Source: a virus
Lineage: Duplodnaviria > Heunggongvirae > Uroviricota > Caudoviricetes
Strand: one strand, 5' to 3'
Virus record (IMG/VR): IMGVR_UViG_2721755646_000007
DNA: 43,137 nucleotides
Made by a program: the position numbers. Below, one piece after another: positions 15,001-18,000 of this stretch; the first letter of the stretch is position 1; every line of letters starts with the position of its first letter.

Positions 15001-18000
15001 AAGAGCGCAAGGTGCTGGAAGAGATTGCCGGTGTTCTGGGTCTTCGTCTGGAGAATCACCTGTGACGGTAAAACTGCGCCTGACTGTGGCTGCACTCCTG
15101 CTGTTTCTGGTGGTGATGGTGGATTTCACCAGCAGAATCATGTCGGTGCTGGCGGATGGGGTGCTGGTCTGCGGCATTGTGGTATTGCTGTGGCCGGTGA
15201 TAAAAAGAAACAGCCTGCATAATGCTTGATTTTTTTGTTTGCTGTTTATTAAAAACACTTCTGCATGGTGAATCCCCCTGTGCGGAGGGGCGATCAGCAA
15301 GAAGGTATATGGGATAATCGCGGATTCAGGTGCTGGTACTGAATTCACCGGGAGGCACCCGGCACCATGCTTTGCCACAAAAGTGTTATTTCTGTTTTTC
15401 TCAAACTATCATCGTTATCCCTTTATTTCCGGCTGCGCATGGCGCGGCCTTTTTTTTACGACCAGCCACTGGCAGATGGTCATCCTGTGATTTGATTCCG
15501 GTTCCGGCTTTTTAACTCTGTTCCTGTACACGGGAGAAATTCGATGTCGATTAAACATTATGATGTTGTCAGGGCGGCGTCGCCGTCAGACCTTGCGGAA
15601 AAGCTGACACACAAACTGAAAGAGGGCTGGCAGCCGTTTGGTAGTCCGGTGGCCATAACCCCTTATACCCTGATGCAGGCGATTACAGCAGAAGGTGATG
15701 TGGTGGTCAGTGGTGCAACTGAGCCGGATTGGTACTACGTCATCGTACTGGCCGGGCAGTCCAATGCCATGGCTTACGGTGAAGGGCTTCCGCTGCCGGA
15801 TTCATACGATGCTCCGGATCCGCGCATTAAACAGCTGGCGCGCCGCAGTACAGTGACGCCGGGTGGGGCTGCCTGCAGATATAACGATATTATTCCGGCC
15901 GACCACTGCCTGCATGATGTGCAGGATATGAGTACGCTGAATCATCCGAAGGCAGACCTGAGCAAAGGGCAGTACGGCTGTGTCGGCCAGGGGTTACATA
16001 TTGCCAAAAAACTGCTCCCGTATATCCCGAATAACGCGGGGATCCTGCTGGTACCATGCTGTCGTGGTGGTTCGGCATTTACCCAGGGCGCGGAGGGGAC
16101 ATTCAGCGAGTCCACGGGGGCCAGCCAGGATTCGGCACGCTGGGGGGTGGGCAAGCCGTTATATCAGGATCTGATTTCCCGCACAAAAGCGGCATTGCAG
16201 AAAAATCCCAAAAACGTTCTGCTGGCCGTCTGCTGGATGCAGGGAGAGTTTGACATGAGCGCCGCCACCCACGCACAGCAACCTGCGCTGTTTACAGCCA
16301 TGCTGGCACAGTTTCGTGCTGACCTCTCCGTGTTTAACGCGCAGTGCCATGGTGGCAGTGCTGCAGATGTGCCGTGGATTTGTGGTGACACGACGTATTA
16401 CTGGAAAAATACATACGCTACCCAGTACGACACCGTGTACGGCGGGTATAAAAACAGGGAGAGTGAGGGCGTTTATTTTGTGCCCTTCATGACAGACGGT
16501 AACGGCGTCAATACCGCCACTAACGCGCCGGCAGAAGATCCGGATATTCCGGCATCAGGATATTACGGTGCGGCATCGAGAACGAATGGAAACCAGGTAT
16601 CATCAAACCGCCCGACACATTTCAGTTCATGGGCGCGCAGGAGCATTATTCCGGATCGTCTGGCAACCGCTATTCTGAACGCAGCCGGGCGCACCTCAGC
16701 CTTCATCAGTGGTAAGGCACCGGAAATCAAACCCTCGCCCGGCGGCAACACGCCATCGGGTCCGTCTGCAGATACGTCCGTTCGCACAATCTCCCTGCTG
16801 CCGGCAGCCGGAGAGGCTGCTGCGCAGGGCTGGAGCATTAAGGATGGCGGAATTCAGTTGTCAGATGGTGTATTTAAGATCACCAGGCAGAGCAATAAAA
16901 CCTGGTCCCTGACGCATCCGGTGGATGACGCAATTACCCTGCTGACACAGGGCGGCAGACTGACCTGTAAGTTCCGCCTGTCAGGCGCACTGACCAACAA
17001 TCAGTTCGGGCTGGGGATTTATCTGTATACGGACGCTCCCGTTCCTGATGGTGTGGCGATGACGGGTACCGGTAATCCGTTCCTGATGTCGTACTTCACT
17101 CAGACCACTGACGGCAGAGTGAATCTGATGCATCACAGGAAAGCCGGAAACACGAAGCTGGGGGAGTTCGGCGATTACGGTAACGACTGGCAGACGCTGG
17201 AGCTGGTGTTCACCGCCGGCAGTGCCACGGTTACTCCGAAACTGAATGGAGTGGCTGGCCCGGCATTCCAGGTTATAAAAGACAGTCTGACACTGGGACT
17301 GAATGCGCTGACGCTGACGGATGTTACAAAAAATGCAGCGTATGGCGTTGAGATAGAAAGTCTGATGCTGGAGATAAATGCACCGGCAGCATAATAAAAA
17401 AAGCCAGCGACTGACCTGAAAAAGAAGACGCTGGCTAAAAGGCCTTATATGTTTGTAGAGACTTATTTTTCACAGACAGCAATGATGCCTGTCAATATAT
17501 TATCAATATGCGGATTGTTTCAGTTACAGATGCTTTATTAAGGAAAAAAACAGCCAGCACTGACTTTCGGTGGAGAGGTGCTGGCTCAAAAGGATAGATG
17601 TACTTCACATGTTGCTTCTATATGGCAGTACATTTTCTGACAGACAGTGACGGATGTTGTCAAGATATTGTGTCATTTATAACCTGAATCAGGGGGTGGC
17701 CGGAATGTTATCTGGCATTTTTAGCAGAGCCTGAATGCCATAATCACGGCTCCCGGCGTTGGCCGTCAGTGGGTGACACTGGCGGCTTTTTTGTTTTTCT
17801 TTACTTTCATTTTCTGTCGGCGGTGACGGAGACATACATCAGATGGAAAAAATCACAACAGGTGTGTCATACACCACGTCAGCGGTGGGGACGGGATACT
17901 GGTTACTGCAGCTGCTGGACAAAGTCTCTCCGTCCCAGTGGGTGGCGATAGGCGTGCTGGGGAGTCTGCTGTTTGGGCTGCTGACATATCTGACGAACCT

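Follow-up and report, generated by a model that had tools for sequence, protein, structure and literature searches.

The window analysed here is the whole of a 43,137-nt stretch of viral DNA (Caudoviricetes; IMG/VR record IMGVR_UViG_2721755646_000007), and the subject of this report is the spacer between its nanS-p and holin S genes. The spacer is 448 nt long and is flanked by the open reading frames (ORFs) 15544-17394 and 17843-18049, in agreement with the annotation of homologous loci. It holds two homologous leftward units, of which unit 1 lies next to nanS-p and unit 2 further to the right, and it is highly probable that they constitute a tandem pair of paralogous leftward genes for Hfq-binding small RNAs (sRNAs). 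The features of the locus are as follows.

15544-17394, plus strand: nanS-p ORF, 616 codons; homologs are annotated as SASA-family carbohydrate esterase / sialate O-acetylesterase.
17392-17394, plus strand: nanS-p stop codon.
17401/2-17396, minus strand: U6-7 tail of unit 1, 1-2 nt off the nanS-p stop codon.
17402-17409 and 17429-17436, minus strand: unit-1 stem AGCCAGCG/CGCTGGCT, read from the sequence.
17495-17490, minus strand: TTGACA of unit 1, read from the sequence.
17550-17544, minus strand: U7 of the unit-2 tail, preceded by G at 17551.
17552-17560 and 17578-17586, minus strand: unit-2 stem AGCCAGCAC/GTGCTGGCT, read from the sequence.
17663-17658, minus strand: TTGACA of unit 2, read from the sequence.
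17761-17797, plus strand: intrinsic terminator-like hairpin with T-run upstream of holin S, found by a scan (11 pairs, 7 of them G-C).
17843-18049, plus strand: holin S gene (class II holin).

On the minus strand, each unit is composed of TTGACA, a conserved CTGTCTGT/A-rich block, a U-rich stretch, a GC-rich hairpin and a U-tract, and the CTGTCTGT that comes after TTGACA is followed by GAAAAAT in unit 1 and by CAGAAAAT in unit 2. The order in unit 2 is TTGACA, ACATCCGTCACTGTCTGTCAGAAAAT, a body of ~36 nt, CCUUUUG, AGCCAGCAC-N17-GUGCUGGCU, and G plus U7 ending at 17544; that in unit 1 is TTGACA, GGCATCATTGCTGTCTGTGAAAAAT, a body of ~20 nt, CCUUUU, AGCCAGCG-N19-CGCUGGCU, and U6-7 ending at 17396. 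An earlier note on this DNA had described two homologous minus-strand terminator units behind TTGACA, and all of the elements were found where it had placed them. Both inverted repeats were recovered in a mechanical repeat search as well (pairs I8 and I12). When the ~150-nt units were aligned globally, the score was 7.7 standard deviations over 1000 shuffles, and 103 of the 128 aligned positions were identical. The terminator hairpins have folding energies of -16.5 and -16.3 kcal/mol (z = -6.5 and -3.0 against shuffled sequence), and both units show the marks of a rho-independent terminator, namely a GC-rich hairpin, a U-tract directly after it, conserved pairing and a published 3′ end. A generic terminator scanner found unit 1 only in part because its loop limit is 8 nt. 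Neither unit matched an Rfam family, either with the whole window at gathering score or with 17200-17950 at E <= 10, where the hits were chance matches to snoRNA and Hrs10 families only. Short ORFs in the spacer are found at 17449-17541 on the plus strand and 17492-17608 on the minus strand.

Unit 2 is identified by its sequence as PasA, an sRNA of enteropathogenic Escherichia coli (EPEC) E2348/69. In that strain, PasA was mapped to the minus strand at 743499-743415 as an 85-nt major form (Pearl Mizrahi et al., Sci Adv 2021, PMC8550237), and a minor form of 236 nt ending at 743264 is given in Table S6 of the same paper. There, PasA was confirmed by northern blotting, its stability was Hfq-dependent (log2 fold change -2.8 in an hfq deletion), and 41 interactions with a shared target motif were detected by RIL-seq, in which interacting RNAs are ligated and sequenced. 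The published northern probe GCCAGCACTGACTTTCGGTGGAGAG matches window 17553-17577 exactly, and the whole spacer is near-identical, almost base for base, to the PP2 locus of E2348/69 (alignment A1). PasA is therefore placed at 17628-17544, and the 3′ end of the minor form, at ~17393, coincides with the unit-1 terminator.

17628-17544, minus strand: PasA sRNA, 85-nt major form, placed by the probe match and the spacer alignment to E2348/69 PP2.
Parts of PasA, minus strand: 5′ body 17628-17593; CCUUUUG; arms 17586-17578 and 17560-17552; 17-nt loop; G plus U7.
17628-17393, minus strand: minor 236-nt PasA read-through transcript, placed by mapping the end 743264 of PMC8550237; it stops at the unit-1 terminator.

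The 236-nt form shows that some transcription of PasA continues as far as the unit-1 terminator. The pasA gene is reported to sit between sialate esterase and holin/lysozyme genes (Zhu, Shabalina & Storz, bioRxiv 2026), and unit 2 has the same neighbours and the same antisense orientation. Probe sequence, position, strand, 85-nt length and terminator are those of PasA of E2348/69, and the region from promoter to terminator is near-identical, with no substantive difference. The window comes from another strain; it matches E. coli 7784 at 100% and many O157, O55 and O111 genomes at 99.4%.

We identify unit 1 as the RNA recorded as EcOnc51/EcOnc52 in enterohaemorrhagic E. coli (EHEC) Sakai. These two names are given for the EHEC homologues of the PasA locus in Table S6 of PMC8550237. 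Tree et al. (2014, Table S2) list EcOnc51 at 2237479-2237555 on the plus strand (prophage Sp12) and EcOnc52 at 1181998-1182075 on the minus strand (Sp4), both as peaks of Hfq crosslinking and analysis of cDNA (Hfq-CRAC) with predicted Rho-independent terminators and nearly equal signal areas. Because these coordinates come from an older version of the Sakai genome, the shift to NC_002695.2 was measured with published probes; it was ~0 at 0.90 Mb (EcOnc32 probe) and at 1.18 Mb (EcOnc08/21 probe), 139-145 at 1.27 Mb (AsxR and EcOnc50 probes) and 124-149 at 2.17 Mb (EcOnc22-24 probe). The 5′ edge of EcOnc52 (shift 0, Sp4) then falls on the first T of UCUCUACAAAC, and that of EcOnc51 (shift 139, Sp12) on the same base, window 17461. 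The identity was proved at the level of sequence by hybrids labelled EcOnc51/52 from RNase E crosslinking, ligation and sequencing of hybrids (RNase E-CLASH; Waters et al. 2017 supplement), which contain CTTTCAGGTCAGTCGCTGGCTCTTTTT, GCGTCTTCTTTCAGGTCAGTCGCTGGCT and CTTTTAGCCAGCGTCTTCTTTCAGGT, that is, the unit-1 terminator in its Sakai allele. In EPEC, RIL-seq chimeras with the sRNA-side fragment 743265-743297 correspond to window 17394-17426, again at the unit-1 terminator.

~17461-17396, minus strand: unit-1 sRNA, ~66 nt, placed by Hfq-CRAC peak mapping, CLASH reads and RIL-seq chimeras.
Parts of the unit-1 RNA, minus strand: 5′ UCUCUACAAACAUAUAAGG; CCUUUU; arms 17436-17429 and 17409-17402; 19-nt loop GUCUUCUUUUUCAGGUCAGU; U6-7 tail.

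A stretch specific to unit 1 is UCUCUACAAACAUAUAAGGCC, and the fold of the sRNA has z = -3.7 and -6.5. Compared with EcOnc51/52 of Sakai, the position is the same, the hybrid reads carry unit-1 sequence and a terminator is predicted in both; the window allele has two extra loop U (UUUUU vs UUU) and no C before the U-tail. A search of the main texts of the papers found no mention of EcOnc51/52, and the papers searched give these RNAs neither a name nor a function nor a family relationship. As a separate observation, EcOnc coordinates in Tree et al. 2014 and Waters et al. 2017 differ from NC_002695.2 by ~0 up to 1.18 Mb and by ~+139 from 1.27 to at least 2.24 Mb, and their mapping onto NC_002695.2 therefore needs correction.

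Minus-strand transcripts thus exist at both units, as evidenced by published northern, Hfq-CRAC and RNase E-CLASH data, and the published RNA data mapped onto the window support the view preferred in the earlier note, in which a small transcription unit running antisense to the late operon has been duplicated. Each RNA has its 3′ end at an intrinsic terminator of its own, and in pathogenic E. coli both are bound by Hfq and the unit-1 RNA by RNase E too. The alternative given in the same note, that the hairpins are protective 3′ structures of rightward transcripts, fared differently. The palindromic stems do form in rightward RNA too, and RIL-seq records plus-strand RNA over the spacer. However, on the plus strand an A-run comes before the stems and no U-run after them, the spacer's plus-strand terminator sits elsewhere, at 17761-17797, and only a minus-strand reading makes sense of the conserved TTGACA/TG blocks and U-tails. 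Since all the mapped stable RNAs of the spacer are also from the minus strand, it is hardly credible that the hairpins have a plus-strand function, whether as 3′ stabilisers of nanS-p mRNA or as late-transcript processing sites. The hairpin at 17761-17797 marks the right boundary of the sRNA cassette, and in the absence of Q antitermination nanS-p transcripts would stop at it, having already run antisense through the two sRNA genes. A further plus-strand terminator-like hairpin, weaker than this one, is found at 17699-17716, and both lie between the PasA promoter and holin S.

PasA and PasC, the latter from prophage PP5 of E2348/69, were concluded to have a common ancestor (Zhu et al. 2026). 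Unit 1 shares with this family the promoter block, the U-rich stretch and the terminator. PasC has the same stem arms, AGCCAGCG/CGCTGGCT, and the same downstream sequence as unit 1, and its promoter and 5′ body resemble those of unit 2, whereas the PasC locus has a single unit in a spacer of ~295 nt and a different loop, UCCUUCAGAGUGGG. A family covariance model (R1) found only two sites in the 43-kb window, with 132 and 90 bits (90 for unit 1), scores that are high partly by construction since both units are in the training alignment; the next minus-strand match had 11 bits (E about 1). In the family alignment A3, made of 16 sequences, the 9-bp helix was 95.8% paired, against 21-49% in slid controls. 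Double-sided changes occur in A3 at 84/106 (C-G 13, U-A 2, U-G 1) and 85/105 (G-C 10, A-U 6), so that the compensatory stem changes that the earlier note had proposed to look for among homologs are indeed seen (C-G to U-A and G-C to A-U), and the covariation support for the stems is modest but consistent.

A scan of IMG/VR anchored on the 3′ end of nanS-p gave 120 loci and 57 distinct complete spacers, approximately two-thirds of them tandem (~450 nt) and one-third single-unit (~295-308 nt). In the tandem spacers unit 1 is almost invariant, and the most variable part is the 5′ body of PasA, which occurs as PasA and PasA-2 alleles. PasC and similar single-unit loci have a promoter and body like those of unit 2, joined to a stem and downstream sequence of the unit-1 type; other single-unit loci have a PasA-type stem with the C-G to U-A double change. 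This mixture of a unit-2-like 5′ part with a unit-1-like terminator points to duplication or unequal recombination as the link between the tandem and the single forms, and PasC-type loci resemble products of recombination between the two units. Unit 1 itself is a diverged tandem paralog of PasA/PasC that was previously unrecognised, a point that appears to be new. This contradicts the statement of Zhu et al. (2026) that tandem duplication is not the source of pasA copies; PasA was explicitly contrasted there with the tandem cases OmrA/OmrB and PrrF1/PrrF2.

The spacer is present in 698 of 5426 complete E. coli genomes, at a median of 5 places per carrying genome, and unit 1 alone in 676 genomes (2304 places). 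It is also found in Stx1a phages, H-19B, YYZ-2008 and phage 434, and the curated record of the last (OL657226) annotates three terminators here, two on the minus strand and one on the plus strand, the latter a few bases off the position matching 17761-17797. Among 185,579 species representatives, the unit-1/PasC terminator pattern matched 14; the sole Escherichia genome was E. albertii, with the same tandem, and the other 13, in unrelated taxa, are most likely chance matches, judged by species. Isolated copies of unit 1 occur at ~100 plasmid places in E. coli genomes, including EHEC plasmids of ~82-96 kb. The copy of pO145-13514 (NZ_CP006028, 2419-2652; ~92% identity) is accompanied by an 87-bp remnant of the nanS-p 3′ end, adjoins IS600 and is near the uilS lactonase gene; in this copy the promoter-like core is preserved, and the stem has lost its closing A-U pair and carries U-G in place of one C-G pair.

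A U-rich stretch just 5′ of the terminator together with a long U-tail is the usual Hfq module. Each of the two RNAs would bind Hfq through its U-rich stretch and terminator U-tail, and would pair with mRNAs in trans through a seed formed by the unusually large terminator loop and the adjacent stem arm. For PasA, the published seed GCCAGCACCU overlaps the 5′ arm of the terminator, which was called unusual (Zhu et al. 2026). The seed of unit 1 appears to lie in the terminator loop as well, a second point that seems to be new, and the proposed sequence, GUCUUCUUU(UU)CAGGUCAGUCGC, would pair with fhuA, groL, ECs1830 and the 5′ untranslated region (UTR) of pfkA. The partner fragments were taken from two independent interactome data sets, CLASH and RIL-seq. 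Prediction of whole sRNA/target duplexes was rejected, as it returned long meaningless duplexes no better than those of shuffles, and was replaced by a test of the longest complement against shuffles. By this test, unit 1 has a perfect complement of 12 nt with fhuA and of 10 nt with the pfkA 5′UTR, and with G-U pairs a complement of 13 bp with groL and 12 bp with ECs1830. All four map to nt 33-53 of the unit-1 RNA, covering the large loop and the 3′ arm, with shuffle fractions of 0.000-0.008, and the same test gave no such complement between PasA and pfkA. The RIL-seq partners of the fragment 743265-743297 are the rpoS start region (92 chimeras), escD (14) and the pfkA 5′UTR (13); the rpoS and escD fragments showed no significant contiguous complement to unit 1 in the longest-complement test.

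These data bear on whether the hairpins are simply insulators, that is, leftward terminators which keep antisense transcription out of nanS-p, or out of toxin cargo upstream in related phages, with the RNAs as by-products that have no targets in trans. Such a role would agree with the phage 434 record, where they are labelled simply as two minus-strand terminators, and with the distance of only 1-2 nt between unit 1 and the nanS-p stop codon. Against it, both RNAs are enriched on Hfq and are almost always the sRNA partner in chimeras, PasA has its 41 interactions with a shared motif, the target fragments are significantly complementary to the loops, and the Hfq module of U-rich stretch and long U-tail is conserved in all three paralog types. 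We therefore consider mere insulation improbable, and less so only than a plus-strand role.

Pairing may also occur in cis and between prophages. Both RNAs are fully complementary to any rightward nanS-p/late RNA that crosses the spacer before the 17761-17797 terminator, and an antisense role of both on this transcript is possible. The strongest RIL-seq partner of PasA (668 chimeras) is plus-strand RNA across the paralogous PasC locus, which supports a possible cross-talk with late mRNAs of other resident prophages. Separately, the plus-strand sequence CTGATGCTGGAG at the 3′ end of nanS-p (17361-17372) matches the published PasA target motif CUGAUGCUGGA, and the same site is listed in E2348C_0688 in a supplementary table for EPEC (PMC8550237), suggesting that the end of the neighbouring nanS-p coding sequence may be a site at which PasA pairs in trans.

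The two-gene reading further supposes that, in the lysogen, host RNA polymerase would start at two similar promoters to yield the 85-nt and ~66-nt RNAs. The candidates are the following.

17663-17634, minus strand: putative PasA promoter; TTGACA 17663-17658, 15 nt, TGT 17642-17640 (extended -10 TG), CAGAAA 17639-17634.
17495-17466, minus strand: putative unit-1 promoter; TTGACA 17495-17490, 15 nt, TGT 17474-17472, GAAAAA 17471-17466.

Both fit the architecture TTGACA-N15-TGn-[C/G]A[G/A]AAA, with a perfect -35, 18-bp spacing and a weak -10 hexamer. TTGACA and CTGTCTGT are invariant between the paralogs in alignment A3, and the 10 nt between them match at only 2 positions. The published 5′ end of PasA (743499, window 17628) is located 6 nt past the A-rich hexamer, and the EcOnc51/52 5′ edge (17461) 5 nt past that of unit 1; both distances fit the geometry of a sigma-70 promoter, with its start site 5-8 nt downstream. 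Except for two singletons, the promoter-like core of unit 1 is invariant in ~70 IMG/VR copies. In Sp4 of Sakai, unit 1 is cut off from any PasA by IS629 ~20 nt upstream of its -35, and on pO145-type plasmids, where it stands alone by the 87-bp nanS-p remnant, the promoter core is unchanged and ~8% of the other positions differ. No convincing LexA- or Fur-like boxes were found in the putative promoters by eye, the only inspection made. Unit 1 probably has an independent promoter.

Several observations weigh against the reading of two independent sRNA genes. The -10 boxes CAGAAA and GAAAAA match only 3 of 6 positions and have no T at -7, and a generic promoter scanner flagged neither putative promoter because they have no T at position 6. 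One EHEC CLASH read covers CATTGCTGTCTGTGAAAAATAAGTC and crosses the unit-1 promoter region, indicating that at least some unit-1 RNA comes from read-through, and the mature 5′ end of PasA may itself come from cleavage of a longer transcript (Zhu et al. 2026). The CRAC reads are not assignable to the Sp4 or the Sp12 copy since the two are identical. The covariation amounts to only 2-3 evolutionary events, between paralogs, because unit 1 is nearly invariant among homologs. CLASH hybrid counts for unit 1 are only 1-2, so that we infer the pairing of its seed with targets, and the literature consulted holds no established physiological function for PasA or the unit-1 RNA.

The weak, uncalled -10 box and the CLASH read spanning the putative promoter would also fit with unit 1 being a decayed duplicate that serves PasA as a back-up terminator, the ~66-nt species being a processed 3′ fragment of the 236-nt read-through RNA. 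That the minor PasA form ends at the unit-1 terminator agrees with this, and so does the abundance of the unit-1 RNA on Hfq, which is ~16-fold lower than that of PasA (EPEC, RIL-seq row read totals). However, the 5′ edges of EcOnc51 and EcOnc52 fall on the same base, 5 nt past the hexamer, which fits a transcription start better than random cleavage, and between the paralogs the -35 and TG block are conserved where the spacer has diverged. The promoter core of the pO145 copy is likewise unchanged despite ~8% substitutions elsewhere, and unit 1 has persisted in the absence of unit 2 both in Sp4 and on plasmids. Pairing of the targets with the loop specific to unit 1 also argues for a gene of its own, but a processed fragment would fit that too. 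Taken together, a back-up terminator is an unlikely explanation, although a good deal less so than insulation. A more far-reaching version of the two-gene reading can be put forward only tentatively: unit 1 may be an independently transcribed third member of PasA/PasC with its own regulon, set by the loop seed (fhuA, pfkA, groL, rpoS start), and the pair may cross-talk with late mRNAs of other resident prophages. Of the possible targets, fhuA codes for the ferrichrome receptor, a protein that phages T1, T5 and phi80 use as their receptor too.

Adjacent paralogous genes for Hfq-dependent sRNAs, in the same orientation and with their own terminators, are known in OmrA/OmrB of E. coli and PrrF1/PrrF2 of Pseudomonas; in both, sequence is conserved in the 3′ parts and has diverged in the 5′ parts, and PrrF also gives a read-through product. 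PasA and unit 1 share with them the tandem same-orientation layout and the conserved 3′ and diverged 5′ parts; unlike them, they are prophage-borne and antisense to an operon, and their proposed seeds are in the terminator loops and not at the 5′ ends. They also resemble AgvB/AsxR (RF02702, RF02703) and HnrS (EcOnc10-12), which are short Hfq-binding sRNAs of lambdoid prophages, antisense to the late operon in the late-gene 'moron' region, but there is no match in sequence or model, and AgvB/AsxR are upstream of nanS-p and HnrS ~3 kb downstream. Identity with AgvB/AsxR was rejected because neither RF02702 nor RF02703 matched, in the window at gathering score or in 17200-17950 at E <= 10. HnrS, which is also 66 nt and multicopy, was rejected as unit 1 because its locus in Sp12 of Sakai corresponds at 100% to window 20620-20800 and not to 17396-17461.

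Other sRNA-like features were observed in the window. A minus-strand unit at ~20644-20712 has the terminator CUGCUGUG-ACUCCAA-CACGGCAG followed by U7, and is the best non-self minus-strand match of the PasA-family model (11 bits, not significant). The region 20620-20800 is 100% identical to Sakai Sp12 2234279-2234459, the EcOnc10 locus, and EcOnc10 is HnrS, described in a 2026 paper as a 66-nt sRNA that represses Hha; the unit carries CUUCU, complementary to the AGAAG of the hha ribosome-binding site of that paper. Just upstream of nanS-p, an STnc100-family sRNA was found at 15234-15457 on the plus strand (Rfam, 101.8 bits), with its terminator at 15431-15449 followed by a T-run; it shares the 5′ end and the terminator with PasD2 of E2348/69, and the middle is strongly diverged. 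Rfam hits above gathering score were the sok antitoxin RNA at 11120-11294 (plus strand, 116.9 bits), DicF at 4223-4274 (minus strand, 76.7 bits) and three tRNA genes at 14210-14456 (plus strand), all typical cargo of lambdoid prophages. No stx genes are present between the tRNA genes and nanS-p.

Because PasA and EcOnc51/52 had both been detected experimentally, the finding is real but essentially known, and its importance is modest, with no new kind of element. What had been known of unit 1 was EcOnc51/52 and a 'minor' end of PasA, and it was never named or studied itself. A single gene now stands behind three entries, namely EcOnc51/52, 'pasA.E2348C_0688.IGR' and the second terminator annotated in phage 434, and a diverged tandem partner of PasA explains the 236-nt isoform. 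Seed/target pairs that can be tested are now proposed for this uncharacterised RNA, and the cassette to which it belongs, carried by 13% of complete E. coli genomes, is one of the sRNA cassettes copied most widely among the prophages of EHEC and EPEC.

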